A DNA stretch of 60,874 bases, the filler included, from Basidioascus undulatus (lineage: Eukaryota): NCBI GenBank assembly GCA_000826855.1. It is 5 parts of 5 records of this genome, joined end to end, with 100 filler letters (N's around TTAATTAATTAA, not from the genome) between each part and the next. Parts side by side here need not be neighbours in the genome. Positions count along the whole stretch, not along the records: positions 32,282 to 60,874 come from JTLS01000146.1; 4 more parts are not named here. One strand, written 5' to 3'. The notes under the pieces are model-generated. The model worked only from the letters and a program-made list of their open reading frames with translations. It was not told the DNA's origin and did no database searches. The position numbers and the translations under genes were made by a program. Positions 28,633 through 48,038 of this stretch are shown here, in pieces (within the stretch, counting starts at the first letter, position 1; each line of letters starts with the position of its first letter).

Positions 28633-29573
28633 TCAACCGGACTGGGACGGACGGGACATGTGGAAGGTGAGCGGAGGGGTGCTGAGCAGAGGGGAAGAGG
28701 CGGGGATGAAGAGCGGACCTTGAAGAGAAGGATGGCGATTTGGCCGAGGTAGAAGTAGATCTGTGCATGGGCGAAGCCAGGTCAGTGTCAGGAGCGGGAG
28801 TGGAGGAAGAGGGCGAGGGTGTGGGGATGTACGAAGTGCTTAGTCTCTGTTGGGAGTAAAGGAGAGAGTCAGCGGTATTCTATAGCATAACGCGTTGAAT
28901 GTGAAGTTGAATGGCTGTGGTATGCCTTGAGGTTCGCACCCAGCCCTCGCTGAAGACTCCTCGCCCGACCAGACGAGCTCCAGCCCGACACCCAACCGCC
29001 TTCCCTGAGACACCGCAGCATTCCGCACCCAAAACTCCAGTCTTCCCAACTCCACGCGCTTCGGTTGCCCATCAACTCACCGTGCGTGACATAGCTCCCG
29101 TAGTTCTTGCCTACCACGACGTGCCAAGTGGGCCCGTAGATCCTGTCAAACTCGCGCTTGATGTGCGCCGCAATGTCCTTCTCGATGTTGTACTTCTCCA
29201 GCGCCGCCGACCTGCAACGCTCAAGTCAGCTGTCTTAGTATCAACCTTGGTGCGGCGAAATGTGGGGGCCGAAAGGGGACTCACGCAACGTCCACCGCCT
29301 GCTGCTGCATCTCCTCGGACATGTCCACGTTCTACCCTCCCAATCCCACAACTCAACCGCTACGACCACAGCTCCTGCGCACAGCACAGCGCCGACGCAC
29401 CTTGATGACCGCTTTCGCCGCCGCGGGGGCCGGCGCAGGCGCAGCAGGCGCCGACTCGGTCTGCGGCTTCTCGTCCGTTGGGGCAGCGGAGGACCTGCGA
29501 TACAAGTTATTGTCAGCTGGCTGCATTTGCTGTGGCGTCCAAATATGGAGCTGGATTGTCAGTGTACGGACAT
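28633..29573 (-). CDS. DYN2: Dynein light chain LC8
   Basis: Spliced: MSSAAP...[85 protein letters not shown]. Confidence 0.95.
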
Positions 29574-32281: not shown

Positions 32282-32342
32282 ACCCCGTCCCGACTCCGCC
32301 CCGACTGCCCTTTCACCGACTGACCCCCACCTCTCATCTCAG

Positions 32343-40498: not shown

Positions 40499-42322
40499 AT
40501 GTCTGACGCCTGGAACAAGAGTTCGTGCCTTCTGGGCGGCGAGGGAGGCAGGCATCGCACGCTGACCGGCTCTGCTGCTTTCTGCACCACACAGCGTACC
40601 ACTGGCGCCAGAAGGGATGCGACCGGTGGGCAAAGGAGTGGTTCAAGTCTCAGCTGGAGGGCCTCAAGGTCGAGGACTCCGGGGACGTTATCACCTTCAC
40701 CGAGCTCAGCGAGTGCGACGGGGACGTCACGCTTGGGTCTAGGAAGGGCAAGTGAGTCGCTGGCCCTTGGGGTTTCTTTCTGAGGGAGGGCGGTATTGCA
40801 AGAGGTAGAGGAGCTGGCGGGATGCTGGAGAGACTTCAAAGGTAGTGCGGTGCTGATGCTATGCTTGTCCCTGTGCGATCGCAGGCTGATCACGATCTAC
40901 GACCTCAAGATCGTCGCGAAGTGGGAAGGTGCGCCGGTCACTGATCATCGGCCGCCCCGCCCATCTCTCAACAATTCTCCTAACACAGGCACCGCTAAAG
41001 ACGGCTCGACCGCCTCAGGCAAGGTGCACGTCCCCGAGGTCTCGCACGAGGCGATCGACGGTCTCTCCGACTACGTTGTGCGTCCCCATCTCCCATCTCC
41101 CCTCTCCTCTCCCAACCACCGTCTCAGCACAGCCCCCCGTTCTCGCACCCACAGTTTGAGATCACCGGCTCCCCCGAGTCCTCCCCCCTCGTCTCCACCG
41201 CCAAGCGCGTCCTCCCCCCGCGCCTGACCGAAATCTTCAACGCGTTCCCCAAAGCGCTCGTCGCCGACCAAGGCAAGGAGTTCAACGCCTCGCCCTCCGC
41301 GTCCGGCGCGTCGACGCCCGCTACCCCTGCCGCCGCACCCACCCCGGGCGGCGTCGCGACCAAGGCCGCGGATGCCGCGAAGGGAGCCGCGCCCAAGGCG
41401 GAGGACCTCGAGCGCAAGGTCGCCGCTGCTGCTAGTGCCAGCAGCAGCAGCAGCAACACGAGCAAGGTTACCGTCGAGGGCCAGTTCATGGCGAGCGCGG
41501 ACGACCTCTGGGAGCTGCTGACGGACGAGAAGAAGGTGCCGATGTGGTCGAGGGCGCCGGCGCAGGTGCATCGCATCTTCTTTCTTCGGGCGCGAAGGAG
41601 GCGGCGAGCTGATGAGCTGGGGCGTGGCGGACACAGATCAAGCCTGAGCCGGGCAGCCAGTTTACGCTGTTTGGCGGGGGCGTCAAAGGCGAGATTGTCG
41701 AGGCGCAGCGGTCGAAGAAACTCGTTCAGAAGTGGGCGCTGTCGGGCGGGAACTGGCCGGAGGGTGCGTCTTGCCTCCCCCATCCTTGCCTTGTTTGCCT
41801 CTCCTCTTTTGCGTCCGTGCTGGATGAGGACTGATCGGCCCGGATGCGAGCGCGAGAGCAGGCCACTACGCGACCCTCACGTCGACGTTTGAGCAAGGCG
41901 CGGACTCGACCACCCTCCGACTCACGCTCGAGGGCGTGCCCAAGGGCCAGGAGGACGAGATCCAGCGGAACCTGGACATGTGTGTCCCTCTCCCCCCTCT
42001 TTCCCCTCCTTTCCGTCCCACGACACTCACAATTCTTGCTTCCGCCCGCCAGGTACTATATCCGCCAGCTCAAACAGTTCGGGTGGGTCACACAAAACTT
42101 TGTCGTCCCCCGCCCCTCCCCTTCCTCCCCTTCGCGCCCCTCGCCTCGTTCTCCCCCCTCCTCCTCCACGCCCGCATGGCTCCCGCCCCTCTCCGCGGCG
42201 CTCGGGATCGCCGCACTCGCTGCCACGTGGAATTACTGGTGGACGAGCCGTGGCTGATGCATTCTTTCTTTTCTTCTTCTGCACCCGTTTTGGCATCATA
42301 CAGGCTCGGCACGATCCTCTAG
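40499..42322 (+). CDS. AHA1: Activator of Hsp90 ATPase Aha1 (two possible C-termini)
   Basis: MSDAWNKTYHWRQKGC...DGDVTLGSRKGKLITIYDL...VPEVSHE...FMASADDLWELLTDEKKVPMWSRAPAQ...FTLFGGGVKG...YYIRQLKQFGLGTIL*. Confidence 0.93.
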
Positions 42323-43812
42323 CCGGATTCGACAGGGATTGCGACTGGGCAGGGTGGGAGAGGATGCAATTGTGTGGATGGGGCGTGGGCGGTTTTTTCC
42401 GAGAGGAAATGCGATGCGTCGGGGAAGGGAAGAACGGAGGGGAGTGCTGCGTGGGATGGGGGATTGGGCATGCCGATGCCGCTGATTTAAGAGCATGCTA
42501 TGTGTGGAAGGATCTCGCGCGAAGGTTTGTGATTCGTCCTCGGTCTGCGGATGGTGTAGATGAGAGGCTTGGTTGTAGGCGCTTGAGGAGTCTGCTCAGC
42601 CCGCCAGTGGCACTGCCTTATACGGGGGTATTGTTTTGCGGTATCTCGTCTCGCATATCGCAGCGGCGACCTTTCTTACCATTGTGATTATCTTTTGCAC
42701 TGCTGCTTGCTTTACACAAGTAATAATTTGGCGTGGATTGCAAGAAGTCGCGAGAATGTACGATGCAGTTTCTCACGTGAAACGAAGCACAGCTCCACCC
42801 TTCCGCCATTTCCTCCAGTCTATCCAGTCCGCTCCTCTCAAACTCTTCCCATCCACGAGCACTTCCACCCTCCCTTTCTACAGAGCAGGCTTTTAGTCGC
42901 CGGTAACCTACCAGCTAGTCCCACCGCCCAGCTGCAGCCGCCCAGCATGTCGTCCACCGCGCCCGTCGTGCTCTACCGCGAGCTCCACTACCCGCCGCAA
43001 TCGCGCTCCTTCCTCTTCTCCTCCTACCTCCCGCCCTCCCCGCGCTTGCGCATGCCCCACGCAGCCTGGACAGGCACGCTCTCGCGCAGGTTCGCTGATG
43101 CGTGCCAGACGCGCGTGGAAGTCATGGTGAGTCTCAGGCGCCGTTTCCTCATCTTCCCTCTCTGCTGTTTCCCTCTCTCAGAAAGCTGATGGATTGGCTC
43201 ACACCTTCGCTGTGGCTGCTTAGGTTGGGGATAAATTTGTTCCCGGCGAGGTCAGACTGGGCGTCACGGGCGAGAGCAGAGTTGCGCAAGAGCCCCCGGC
43301 CCCGTTCAAGAAGGGGCGGGTGATCAAGATTGGCTGGGTGATGACGTCGACTGGGGACTACGTGCCCATCTGAGGACTCCTGCGCTGTAGGAAATGAGGC
43401 GGCGGAAGGCAGATGGAACCATATGGTGAGCTGGACTGCTTGGTTAGGTCGGCGTCGGGTTGTACGAAGGGGAAGCCGGAACATGCACAGGACTGTTGGC
43501 GATTTCCGCTGCGCGGCCACGAGGGAACGATGGAACTGCACACCGCACACATGAGGCAGATAGCGTTGAGGCTGTATTCATTCAGGAGCTGATGTTACAA
43601 GACAGATTGGGGCGCAGGGTTGAGCTGCCGATGCGGATGCGAGAGAATCATGCGTAACAGGAACAAGAGCCTAGCAGGCCAGAATGTTGAAGGGAAAGAA
43701 GGACCGAGAGAAAAGAAAGAAAGCAGCAAGAAAGACCTGGGCAGTGTGGAGAAAGAGAAACTTGAATGTCTAAGATGCGATCGAGAGAAGGGGAGGATAT
43801 CGAGAAAGGCGT

Positions 43813-46800
43813 CTAGAAGAGACCAATGACCTGCGAGGAGAGCAGGGTCAGGACATGCGTGAGGCGGAATGGTAGACGGTGGGGATAGGAAGGGCGCCGT
43901 ACCTTGGGGGGGACCACAGAGGTGTCGAGGTCGATGTCGTAGTAACCGGGGCGGGTCGACAGACCGGGCATGGTCTGCGAGAGAAGAAGGGAACCGTAAG
44001 TACAAGCGGCGGAAGGGGATAATCGGGTGAATCGCATGCGCTGGACGTACCTGCATGTCACCGCAGAGCGGGTAGAGGAAGCCAGCACCGGCTGCGAGCT
44101 TGACCGAGCGGATGGGAACGGTGAAGCCTGATCGTCGAGAGAAAGGAGCCCGTCAGATGCCTGCGGAAGTAGCAGGGAACAAAGGACGAGACACGCACCA
44201 GTCGGGACGCCCTTGAGCTTGGGGTTGTGCGAGAGGGAGAGATGGCTCTTGGCCATGCAGATCTGCCGGCCCATCCAATCCACCGCGTCAGCATCGCGTC
44301 CACACCCGCAACTCCTCAAACCCTCGCGCAACGCACAGGCAGGTGGCCGTAGCCCTGGCGAGTGTAAGTCTCGATTTGGCTCTTCGCGAGCTCGCTGAGC
44401 TCGATACCGTCCGCGCCGTACATCTCACGCGCGATCACGGCGATCTTGGCCTCGACGGTCTCCTCGTCGCGGTAGAGGAGCTTGAAGTCGGCGTTCTCCG
44501 TCGCCTCGAGCGTCTCGCCGTTCGCGCCCTTGGGCTCGACGGTGTCGATCAGCGCCTGCGCGAGCTCGACTGCACCCTCGCCACCCTTCGCCCAGTGGTT
44601 CGCGGGGACGGCGGCGTGCGCGCCGGCCTGCAGGGCATACTTCTGCACGAGGTCGAGCTCGGCCTGGGTGTCGGAGCTGCAAGATCGAGAAACACACGCT
44701 CGTCAACATCCACACGATTTTGAACAGAACCCGAATGCAGGGCAGGCAAGAACGAGGGTGGATACGTACGCGAACTGGTTGATGGCGACGATGACCTTGA
44801 CGCCGAACTTGCGGCCGTTCTCGATGTGCTTGGCGAGGTTCTTGCAGCCCTCCTCAAGCGTGACGAGGTCCTCGTTGAGGTACGTGTCGTGGAGGGGCTT
44901 GCCGGGGGTGACCTCGGGCCCGCCGCCGTGCATCTTGAGCGCACGGACGGTCGCGACCAGAACGACGGCGTCGGGGACGAGGCCGGAGACGCGGCACTTG
45001 ATGTTGAAGAACTTCTCCATGCCTGTAATGGACCAAGTACTCATGAGTACTTGTAGAACTCGGAAATGAGACGGAGCAGCTTGACGGACCGATGTCAGCG
45101 CCGAAGCCAGCCTCGGTGATGACGTAGCCGCCGACGCTGGCGGATTCGCCCTCCTCGGTACCGGCGAGCTTGAGCGCGACGCGGTCCGCGAGGATGGACG
45201 AGTTACCGTGGGCGATGTTGGCGAACGGCCCGGCGTGGACGAAGACGGGCGTGCCCTCCAGCGTCTGCATGAGGTTGGGCTTGATCGAGTCCTTCATGAG
45301 CACGGTGAGCGCGCCCGTGATACCGATGTCGTCAGCCGTGACGGGCTCGCCCGCCTTGGACGTCGCGACGACGATCTGGCCGAGGCGCTCGCGCATGTCG
45401 GCGAGGTCCTTGGACAGCGCGAGCACGGCCATGATCTCGGACGCGACGGCGATGTCGTACCCAGTCTCGCGGGTGCGGCCCTGTCCACCCGGATGTCCGT
45501 CTCAGCATCCCATCCCAACGAAACTTAAGAAGGCGCTAGGAGGACTCACGAGCTCAGTCTGCGCCTGACCAACGGTGATCTTGCGAAGGAAGCGGTCGTT
45601 GGTGTCCGTGACGCGGTGCCAGGTGATGGTCTCGGGGTCGATGTCGAGGCGGGCGAAGCGCGTCTGCTCCTCAGGGGTGAGGTCGTCCGGGTTCGTCTTG
45701 TTGATGCCAAGCTTCTGGAGGCGCTTGAGCATGATCGGCGAGAACGTGCGCACGCCCTTCTTCGCGGGGCAGAGACGCGTGAAGAGCGCCTTATCCGACT
45801 GCGTCGACTCGTGGAACATCCGCGCGTCGATGGCGGCGGCTGCGTCGGGAAGCAGGGATGGTTAAGACAGATTTGGGTGGAAGACGAGAGGGAGCGACGC
45901 GTACCGAGGAGGTTGTTCGCGGCGGTGACGGCGTGGATGTCACCAGTCAAGTGGAGGTTGAACTAAAACGCATCCTCGCGTCAGTCCTGCCTATCCCACA
46001 AACCCAGAACGGCGACAACGCACCTCGTCCATGGGGATGATCTGCGCGTAACCACCACCCGCAGCACCGCCCTTGATGCCGAACGTGGGGCCCTGAGACG
46101 GCTGGCGGACACAGGCGAACGCCGGGCGGGCGAGGTGGGCGCCGAGCGCCTGGGCGAGGCCGACGGTCGTCGTCGACTTCCCCTCGCCGAGCGGCGTCGG
46201 GGTGATGCCCGCCACAACGACGTACTTGCCATCCTTGCGGTGCTTCAGGCGCTCGAGCAGCGAGAGCTCGACCTTAGCCTTGACGCGGCCGTACGTCTCC
46301 AGCTCGTCAGAGCGGATGCCGATCTCCTTTGCGAGCTTGGTGATCGGCTTGGGGGTCTGCGCGGAGGCGATCTCGATGTCGCTGATCGGGATGAACATTG
46401 AGCGAAATTAGCACCGTCTCACAGAAAGACATGTGGGTTGCAATGCAGGAAGGAAAGACGAACCTGGGGACCTTCTCGAGGATGGTGAGCGGCAGGGGCT
46501 CAGCGACACCGCGCCCACGGCCGTTGCGCGCCTCGTGCTGGCGCTTGGCGGCGGCAAAGGTGTTCTCCATGAGCATCGCGACGGTCATGGGGCCGACACC
46601 GCCGGGGACGGGGGTGATGGCGGACGCGCGCGCGGAGGCAGCAGCGAACTCGACATCGCCGAGCATGCGCTGGCCAGACTTCTTGGTCGCGTCTGTCAAG
46701 AACAGCCGAATGCAAGGGTCAGCTTGCGTGCAAGGCGTACAGGAGGGAAAGATAAGAGAACACGAGGACGAACCAGGAACGAAGTTGGCGCCGACGTCGA

Positions 46801-48038
46801 TGACCACAGCGCCCTCCTTGATCCACTCGCCCTTGACGAACTCGGGCGAGCCGATGGCAGCGACGACGATGTCGGCCTGCTTGACCTGTTTGACGCAACA
46901 ACACCTAAACTGTGAGCCAATCGCTGAAGGAGAACTATGGAGGCTGCGTACGAGCTCGGGGATGTTCTTTGTGCGGGAGTGAATCTGAACGACGGTCGCG
47001 TCACGGCGGCGGAGCATGGAGCACGCGGGGGTGCCGACAATGTCAGAGCGGCCGAGGACGACGGCGAGCTTGCCGGCAATCTGGACGCCCGTCTCGTCGA
47101 GGAGGCGGATGACACCGGCCGGGGTGCAGGGCGCGAAGAGGGGGTCCGCGGTACGCGAGGAGAGAGCACCGGTGGTGAGGGGGTGGAAGCTAGGCAGGAC
47201 AGAAGGGGTTCAGTCGGCGCTGTGCAAGAGAAGATATGAGTAGAAAAGCAGGGACTAACCCGTCAACGTCCTTCTCGTGTGCAATAGCCTCAACAACGCG
47301 ACGCTCGCCCTCCTTGCCGCCGTTGGCGAGCGGGAGCTGGACGAGGACGCCATGGATGCCCTCGTCCTCGTTGGCGTGCTGGACGGCCTCGACGATCTTG
47401 TCGACGGGCTCGTCGGCGGGGATCTGGAGGTGGGTGAACTTGAAGCCGGCCTCGGCGGCGGCGAGGCGCTTCATGCGGATGTAGGAGGTCGAGTCGGGGC
47501 GCGCGCCGTGCTGGATAATGAGGAGGTGCGGCTGGAAGGGGAGGGACGAGACCTGCGATTGCAGGGACTGGCGGATGGACCTGCATTATGAATTGATGGT
47601 GAGTGTCTGAAAGAATGGTCTTGAAGGCGAGAAAGATGGGAGCGAGGAGCGAAGGGGCAGCGAGGGAGATGGCCAGTTGCGCGAAGACAAGACGCCCAGT
47701 CATTTTTGTTTGCCTTCTCGCTCGCTGCCTTCGCACCCAGAATAGCTCAAAAGAGAGAAATGAAAGACTCACTTTGAAACAGCAGTGCCGTCAATGATCT
47801 TGGCCTTCGCGGCCGACTCGGCAGACGGGGGGACGCCCGTGGCCGCGGCGGGGTTCTCCTGGGAGGCAGACATGGCGGATGTCGTACGGAATCGGGCGGG
47901 GGAGGAAGACGAGAGAGTACGGGCGGTGCGAAGGGAACCAGAAGCAGCGGACTTGGACTGAAGAAGGGAGCGTGTGGTGTTGGAGGTCGTCGCGCGGTGC
48001 AAGGAGCGGACGGCGACGAGGCGGCGGGAGAGAAGCAT
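43813..48038 (-). CDS. ADE3: Trifunctional C1-tetrahydrofolate synthase (Ade3/Mis1-like) with mitochondrial presequence
   Basis: [94 protein letters not shown]...GLF*. Confidence 0.97.

Follow-up and report, generated by a model that had tools for sequence, protein, structure and literature searches.

We find that the gene for the Hsp90 co-chaperone Aha1 in Basidioascus undulatus can be read to two different protein ends, one soluble and one that resembles a membrane anchor. The gene, AHA1, lies on a 60,874-nucleotide (nt) stretch of DNA from assembly GCA_000826855.1 (the whole of this stretch, five parts joined end to end, of which positions 32,282 to 60,874 come from JTLS01000146.1, is called the window here), and we show by comparison with relatives that one gene encodes two conserved alternative C-termini, with the choice between them depending on removal of the last intron. 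This intron is very likely a conserved coding alternative end of AHA1 in basidiomycetes, and the B. undulatus genome probably makes a membrane-anchored Aha1 when the intron is left unspliced. A preliminary description of the window had proposed such a switch between soluble and membrane-bound forms; comparative evidence supports that interpretation, and the open-frame argument does not.

The window AHA1 gene (+ strand, 40499-42322) has nine exons whose joined frame is intact across junctions that are all GT..AG, and its spliced product is 338 amino acids (aa) long. The Pfam family Aha1_N (PF09229) matches the piece encoded by exon 2 (E 4.4e-10, 40.3 bits, cut-off 23.6), AHSA1 (PF08327) scores 20.1 bits on the 38-aa piece from exon 7, under its cut-off of 22.1, and over its whole length the computed protein shares 45-48% identity with basidiomycete Aha1 proteins that bear both PF08327 and PF09229, with no full-length match above ~48%. 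Judged by these matches, the gene is a member of the Aha1 family with both domains.

The preliminary description had placed a donor at 42083 and an acceptor AG at 42303, giving a 221-nt intron, a soluble end FGLGTIL-stop, and a read-through of 57 codons ending in TSRG and a TGA at 42255-42257, and translation confirms each of these coordinates. With the intron removed, the protein ends ...YYIRQLKQFG-LGTIL-stop; with the intron kept, 57 further codons (42084-42254) encode WVTQNFVV, a Pro/Ser/Arg linker, AWLPPLSAALGIAALAATWNYWW and TSRG before the TGA. The hydrophobic segment that had been noted earlier, AWLPP...WW, corresponds to 42174-42242. The last intron was also said to be longer than most in the window, and within the gene it is the longest, at 221 nt against 60-133 nt for the other seven introns. 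A scan of 41900-42700 against Rfam at E up to 10 returns no RNA family in or around the intron, and thus no known intron-hosted small nucleolar RNA or other RNA family explains its length. Outside the tail the protein is not hydrophobic: the maximum 19-residue Kyte-Doolittle mean of the spliced 338-aa form is 0.76, with no other hydrophobic stretch, and the N-terminus (MSDAWNKTYHW...) is polar, with no signal peptide and no second membrane span. A glycosylphosphatidylinositol-anchor signal is ruled out for the tail because Aha1 is without a signal peptide.

The comparative evidence comes foremost from the same intron in relatives. Scanning of metagenome contigs gave 132 confirmed AHA1 loci, the best 80 of which were kept and read from the end-of-domain motif onward; six are fully spliced short-form transcripts, 14 are cut by the contig end, and 60 show the unspliced intron as far as the first in-frame stop. 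Orthologous introns with early stops or no hydrophobic segment had been named as what would speak against the proposed switch, and we find that 59 of these 60 instead stay in frame for 47-75 codons and reach a hydrophobic 19-mer (Kyte-Doolittle mean at least 1.6) that ends no more than 20 residues from the stop. The donors read in frame in these relatives are GTAYGT or GTTAGT, and the introns are 206-316 nt long, with a median of 247. The splicing alternative is preserved along with the tail, as 56 of the 59 tail-bearing loci also keep the pyrimidine tract, the AG and a downstream mini-exon, (G)L[GVA]xxL-stop; of the three in which no mini-exon is visible, two contigs (L043 and L046) end too soon and one (L025) enters a poly(A) run. 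The sole exception among the 60, L068 (4224-4420), has a 121-nt intron with the donor GTGTGT and a stop after 24 codons, with no hydrophobic segment, and an intact mini-exon GLGSVL-stop; this lineage has apparently lost the anchored isoform, and its intron illustrates a purely non-coding version. The 123 tails from loci and proteins together fall into 81 clusters at 70% identity and 36 at 50%, so the pattern is not one clade counted repeatedly.

One further feature of the window intron, the overlap of the long-form stop with the likely branch point CTGAT, had been singled out in the preliminary description. The overlap is real in the window, where CTGAY motifs are present in other AHA1 introns too, but it is not conserved, being found in 4 of 47 distinct relatives, and we reject a stop supplied by the branch-point consensus as a conserved design.

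Constraint on the orthologous tail had been expected to lie below neutrality, and it does. From Nei-Gojobori counts over seven disjoint pairs of loci with equal tail length, the ratio of the proportions of nonsynonymous and synonymous differences (pN/pS) comes to 0.57 for the linker (p 0.003) and to 0.46 for the final 30 tail codons (p 0.0005; one-sided binomial against neutrality), values only moderately below 1 from pairs that are not fully independent, two of them coming from one clade. A disordered linker and a membrane span would be expected to show no more than such moderate constraint. We regard the persistence of frame and architecture over many diverged lineages as the stronger argument.

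The proteins of relatives form a bimodal family. A profile search that grew out of an exon 5 search yielded 524 protein matches; the best 120 of these basidiomycete Aha1 entries comprise 71 short forms, 48 long forms with a C-terminal hydrophobic segment and one long form without (P0006), proportions that, like those among the metagenome loci, are not unbiased, given that the search profiles held tail columns and that only best-scoring subsets were examined. Short forms are 323-347 residues long and end ...G-LG-x-x-L. Long forms (374-413 residues) continue from the same Gly into a linker, 30-45 residues of which separate the folded domain from the hydrophobic segment, and then into a hydrophobic 19-mer (Kyte-Doolittle 1.7-2.85) that ends 1-16 residues from the C-terminus. 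The extension starts with YV in 46 of 49 long forms with a hydrophobic end (the 48 plus P0010), which is what the donor GTACGT or GTATGT encodes if read after the two G's of the Gly codon, and many tails share a motif of the type LVLVAAF-x-IPY-L. Where the species of a long form is named, it belongs to one of many orders of Agaricomycetes, to Kwoniella (Tremellomycetes) or to Rhodotorula (Microbotryomycetes); Trametes, Ganoderma and Lyophyllum are each annotated with both kinds, in different species, and one entry of this long/short family is titled 'Co-chaperone, variant 2'. Further long forms are present among the best 150 of 3077 matches in a HMMER search of 1.84 billion representatives.

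Two groups of proteins depart from this layout. Seven entries, the Rhodotorula protein included (P0010, P0125, P0140, P0143, P0153, P0184 and P0202), have tails that end ...(F/I)YYGP(S/T)G(P/S)GGK(K), and in several of them the extension begins after G-LG and not directly after the Gly, so that the alternative junction in this group may differ from the donor read-through of Agaricomycetes and the window. Another seven (P0145, P0146, P0166, P0199, P0205, P0208 and P0212) have C-domains of a non-basidiomycete type (...NW-x-x-YY[WF]...) and end in a basic/acidic linker and a hydrophobic segment at the very C-terminus; P0146 runs ...FG-YV..., as though a donor were read in frame. Aha1 may have acquired a membrane anchor on more than one occasion.

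Two routes to the long form had been suggested, retention of the intron and polyadenylation inside it, and both find some support, in relatives only. Among the best 120 proteins, 39 entries come from outside NCBI, mostly on transcript-sized contigs, and 10 of these are long forms and 29 short. All 10 long forms lie on contigs of 1235-1394 nt, too short to hold a coding sequence of ~1150 nt together with ~340 nt of upstream introns, and the upstream introns would therefore have been removed. In two of the metagenome loci, L014 and L018, the coding sequence is complete and uninterrupted except by the last intron, and the mini-exons GLVSAL-stop and GLATAL-stop lie downstream. For polyadenylation, L025 (706-810) has 28 consecutive A's that begin 72 nt past the long-form stop, before any acceptor and just past a branch-point-like ACTGAT and a pyrimidine tract, which suggests cleavage and polyadenylation inside the intron; this contig also looks chimeric at homopolymers, with C and T runs and unrelated sequence after them, and the run of A's is probably a poly(A) tail that the assembler joined to other transcripts. 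We reject L008 and L010 as retention-specific transcripts, since they keep other introns too and are partly processed RNA or DNA that gives no evidence of specific retention.

In two of the loci with a spliced short-form Aha1, a second long contiguous open reading frame (ORF) lies beside it on the same strand (L003:1172-2194 and L035:717-1703), both ending ...IETTAQIHYEAFRSKQLLALKE...; it is a conserved neighbour joined to AHA1 by read-through transcription, or else the result of chimeric assembly.

The window tail itself was modelled with AlphaFold2 as a 65-aa piece aligned with the corresponding pieces of 29 relatives. The linker has no secondary structure and a predicted local distance difference test score (pLDDT) of 51-62, and it is followed by a helix at residues 41-64 (tail residues 33-56, 24 residues) with a pLDDT of ~95 that ends one residue before the C-terminus. 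A full-length model of a relative, P0012, built with 51 aligned long forms, shows the two Aha1 domains, a helix at residues 302-319 that corresponds to the C-terminal-domain helix whose end exon 8 encodes, a low-confidence region at 320-355 and a terminal helix at 356-377 (pLDDT ~72-89). The window tail aligns colinearly with the linkers and tails of the 29 relatives. Its best pairwise match is the tail of P0120, at 49% identity, with PRPSP-SSPSR and the end W-x-TSR in common, although much of this shared sequence is of low complexity. By the Wimley-White octanol scale, which credits Trp, the best 19-residue sum of the window tail is -6.0 against -3.2 to -10.5 in relatives, 13 of 64 of which are weaker. 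Tail-anchored proteins have no signal peptide, a single hydrophobic helix of ~20 residues that lies no more than ~30-40 residues from the C-terminus, and a very short tail after it; by this definition, relatives are clearly tail-anchor-like and the window product is marginally so.

Several observations weigh against a functional anchor in the window, in addition to the possible bias in the long-form proportions, the moderate pN/pS, and the nature of the L025, L008 and L010 contigs. The best 19-residue Kyte-Doolittle mean of the window tail is 1.34, under the usual cut of 1.6, and its segment is the weakest of all tails, the 64 relatives' tails spanning 1.53-2.85 with a median of 2.31; the segment contains two prolines, and these together with Ala, Gly and a Trp/Tyr-rich end account for the low value. 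A profile of 63 relatives' tails, run against the window in six frames, gives no significant match to the AHA1 intron frame (full-sequence E 10; domain 11.1 bits, independent E 0.035), and we therefore reject this search as proof of sequence homology; the homology of the window tail rests on position and architecture, not on a sequence score. A search with exon 8 plus tail (67 aa) against longer proteins scored none of 853 candidates.

The same tail profile scored an unrelated stop-to-stop ORF at 29244-29558 (-) above the AHA1 tail (13.7 bits, E 0.0056). This ORF has no Pfam match, and the hit is probably due to chance, from a hydrophobic Ser/Pro-rich stretch.

Also on the negative side is the open frame, which had been offered as evidence and turns out to be at chance level. 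In 5000 dinucleotide shuffles of the last intron with the donor hexamer and the last 25 nt fixed, at least 57 codons stay open in 3193, and five of the seven other AHA1 introns are likewise open in frame throughout. The last intron is only 10% A, because of which all three forward frames are nearly stop-free here: over the end of AHA1 and its 3' flank (41828-42687, +) they run for 164, 140 and 264 codons almost without stops, and a plainly non-coding frame has no stop for 264 codons (41893-42687). An open frame, however long, does not point to coding in a genome so rich in GC and poor in A. A tail-anchor-like layout is rarer, at 20 of 5000 shuffles; a shuffle counted as such if 45 or more codons were open and a 19-residue stretch with a Kyte-Doolittle mean of 1.34 or above ended no more than 16 residues from the stop. 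In a six-frame control over the window, a comparably hydrophobic end is present in 49 of the 906 stop-to-stop segments that are 45 residues or longer. Composition changes along the intron as well: GC content is ~70% in the tail-coding part, against 62% for the other AHA1 introns, and falls to 41% over the 46 nt that follow the stop. Taken on its own, the evidence from the window is a weak lead, in which a hydrophobic end near the stop carries some weight.

One alternative is that the window frame is a by-product, in that the intron is always spliced, or unspliced RNA is not exported or not translated, and the hydrophobic stretch has decayed or is accidental while relatives use theirs. The chance-level open frame, the weakest hydrophobic segment of all tails and the insignificant profile score would all be accounted for in this way, and L068, which clearly lost its tail, indicates that loss happens. 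Set against this are an intron that at 221 nt is as long as those of tail-bearing lineages and not like the 121 nt of L068 or the 60-133 nt of its sister introns, a layout reached in only 20 of 5000 shuffles, the colinear alignment with relatives and 49% identity to the P0120 tail, a confidently predicted helix, and a composition that breaks exactly at the stop. We consider a by-product unlikely.

A second alternative grants that the long isoform is made and conserved, and takes its hydrophobic end for a degron that would tune Aha1 dosage by making protein from unspliced mRNA short-lived, or for a helix that self-associates or binds a partner. Exposed C-terminal hydrophobic stretches are recognised by quality-control systems, the window segment falls under the usual Kyte-Doolittle threshold, pN/pS is only moderately below 1, and membrane insertion is a sequence-level prediction. 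The segments of relatives, however, match typical membrane spans in hydrophobicity (median 2.31, maximum 2.85, over ~20 residues that end 1-16 from the C-terminus), the linker of 30-45 residues that always precedes them suits a tether and is unnecessary for a degron, and a degron needs neither a conserved helix length nor a recurrent AAF-x-IPY motif. This explanation is, in our judgement, a little less probable again than a by-product.

Least probable is that long forms are artefacts of gene prediction or assembly, arising from a missed 19-nt exon or from contigs of unprocessed pre-mRNA: gene finders often overlook terminal exons of such small size, genome-annotated long forms can arise when the 19-nt last exon is missed, and L008 and L010 do keep other introns, yet artefacts cannot explain 59 of 60 independent read-throughs that end in a hydrophobic helix near the stop, an intron 3-5 times longer than its neighbours, a pN/pS below 1, or 10 transcript-sized contigs that keep only the last intron, and this explanation is already contradicted by the conservation data.

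A switch between soluble and anchored Aha1, which we favour, would operate as follows. When the intron is spliced, the 19-nt mini-exon would close the protein with ...KQFGLGTIL, to give the ordinary soluble Aha1, an activator of the Hsp90 ATPase. When the intron is retained, or when the transcript is cleaved and polyadenylated inside it, translation would continue from the Gly codon through the donor and add 57 residues, of which ~30 make up a disordered Pro/Ser linker, the next ~22-24 a hydrophobic helix and the last four the end. The long-form stop lies 3' of the last exon-exon junction, and the mRNA should consequently escape junction-dependent nonsense-mediated decay; the 3' untranslated region of the unspliced mRNA would be longer by only ~65 nt, and we infer that this mRNA is exported and translated. 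Once translated, the long form would enter an organelle membrane through its C-terminal helix and leave both Hsp90-binding domains in the cytosol on a flexible tether, and Hsp90 cycling would thereby be accelerated locally at that membrane. The endoplasmic reticulum (ER) is our best guess for relatives with strongly hydrophobic segments, as the tails of Agaricomycetes look like ER-type tail anchors; for the less hydrophobic tails of the window and the Rhodotorula group, the mitochondrial outer membrane and the peroxisome are equally conceivable destinations. A broader proposal, which strikes us as plausible and not quite probable, is that Basidiomycota, and perhaps repeatedly other eukaryotes, given the seven proteins with C-domains of a non-basidiomycete type, maintain two pools of Aha1 from one gene, one free and one tethered to the cytosolic face of the ER or another organelle. 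Splicing of the last intron would compete with 3'-end formation or export and so divide the pools, and Hsp90 would be accelerated locally for membrane-protein or import clients, in a chaperone-system counterpart of the immunoglobulin membrane/secreted switch.

The features of the window gene are collected in Table 1, together with the relatives that appear as fully spliced transcripts. Among the five longest ORFs of the window, four have no Pfam match. A neighbouring housekeeping gene at 46310-47209 (-) carries the NAD(P)-binding domain of tetrahydrofolate dehydrogenase/cyclohydrolase (PF02882, E 8.5e-56).

Table 1. Features of AHA1 and its two alternative 3' ends, in window positions, and metagenome loci with fully spliced short forms
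Feature	Position or locus	Strand	Basis
AHA1 coding region, nine exons	40499-40520, 40595-40751, 40885-40928, 40989-41077, 41155-41565, 41637-41763, 41862-41979, 42053-42082, 42304-42322	+	translation, splice sites
Exon 8 (30 nt), encodes (M)YYIRQLKQFG, end of the last helix of the C-terminal domain	42053-42082	+	translation
Last intron (221 nt), doubles as putative alternative coding 3' end; donor GTGGGT 42083-42088, acceptor AG 42302-42303	42083-42303	+	sequence
Read-through tail residues 1-30, WVTQNFVV then Pro/Ser/Arg-rich linker, predicted disordered	42084-42173	+	translation, AlphaFold2
Predicted hydrophobic C-terminal helix, tail residues 33-56, LPPLSAALGIAALAATWNYWWTSR	42180-42251	+	AlphaFold2, hydropathy
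TGA stop of the long isoform, within CTGAT 42254-42258 (likely branch point), 46 nt 5' of the acceptor	42255-42257	+	sequence
Pyrimidine-rich tract and 3' splice site, GC 41%	42261-42303	+	sequence
Last mini-exon (19 nt), soluble end (G)LGTIL-stop, TAG 42320-42322	42304-42322	+	translation
Fully spliced short-form transcripts (metagenome)	L001, L002, L003, L007, L013, L035		

No stronger accelerator of the Hsp90 ATPase than Aha1 is known, and Aha1 is regarded as a cytosolic factor that diffuses freely. If the long form is indeed an anchored protein, Hsp90 cycling would be spatially organised at an organelle surface across a fungal phylum, an idea that, to our knowledge, has so far rested on unrelated anchored co-chaperones such as FKBP8 or Tom70. 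Intron retention dominates alternative splicing in fungi, and its function is usually doubted; the AHA1 intron would then be a clean and deeply conserved case of a fungal retained intron that is coding and not noise. There is also a problem of annotation, in that basidiomycete proteomes list the short or the long form apparently arbitrarily (71 versus 48 among the best 120) when both are encoded. The hypothesis is directly testable in tractable basidiomycetes.

Searches of the main text of openly available literature found no description of a membrane- or tail-anchored Aha1. In the portions available of papers that pair Aha1 with 'membrane-anchored', the term is applied to FKBP8 and not to Aha1, and the main text of a paper on alternative splicing in Schizophyllum, in its accessible portion, mentions neither Hsp90 nor chaperones (PMC5034255).

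Set beside known systems, the window gene is like Aha1/AHSA1 (yeast Aha1, human AHSA1) in both domains, and its spliced end is ...FG-LG-x-x-L, as in other fungal Aha1; it differs from these soluble proteins in encoding a second product with a 57-residue linker and hydrophobic helix. The closest functional precedent for what a tethered Aha1 might do is FKBP8 (FKBP38), which a C-terminal anchor holds at the surface of an organelle and which, in the part of the source available, is described as a membrane-anchored Hsp90 co-chaperone of the ER and mitochondria that links Hsp70-Hsp90 to membrane-protein folding (PMC13470449). FKBP8 belongs to an unrelated tetratricopeptide-repeat/peptidyl-prolyl isomerase (TPR/PPIase) family and its anchor is constitutive, whereas the Aha1 anchor would be optional and intron-encoded.

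Immunoglobulin heavy chains are made in membrane and secreted forms by alternative 3' processing. In the same way, syntaxin 3 and its soluble form Stx3S are reported, in the available part of the text, as isoforms with and without a C-terminal membrane segment that arise by alternative 3' processing (bioRxiv 10.1101/162958). AHA1 resembles both in that one gene would give anchored and unanchored forms, set by splicing of a 3' intron or by a transcript end within it. In those systems, however, the anchored form is canonical or the protein is secretory, whereas here a cytosolic co-chaperone would gain an anchor, all of it encoded by a retained last intron that is translated from its donor onward.

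Also close are the cryptic targeting signals of fungi, on which original work was reportedly done in Ustilago. In fungi including basidiomycetes, cryptic C-terminal targeting signals are unmasked by alternative splicing or by stop-codon read-through, according to the accessible parts of one study and a review (PMC4207609, PMC9549241). AHA1 would share with these a minority isoform in which an added C-terminal signal gives dual localisation to a cytosolic protein; there, however, the signals are short peroxisomal tripeptides on metabolic enzymes, whereas here a whole tail-anchor module would be added to a chaperone cofactor.

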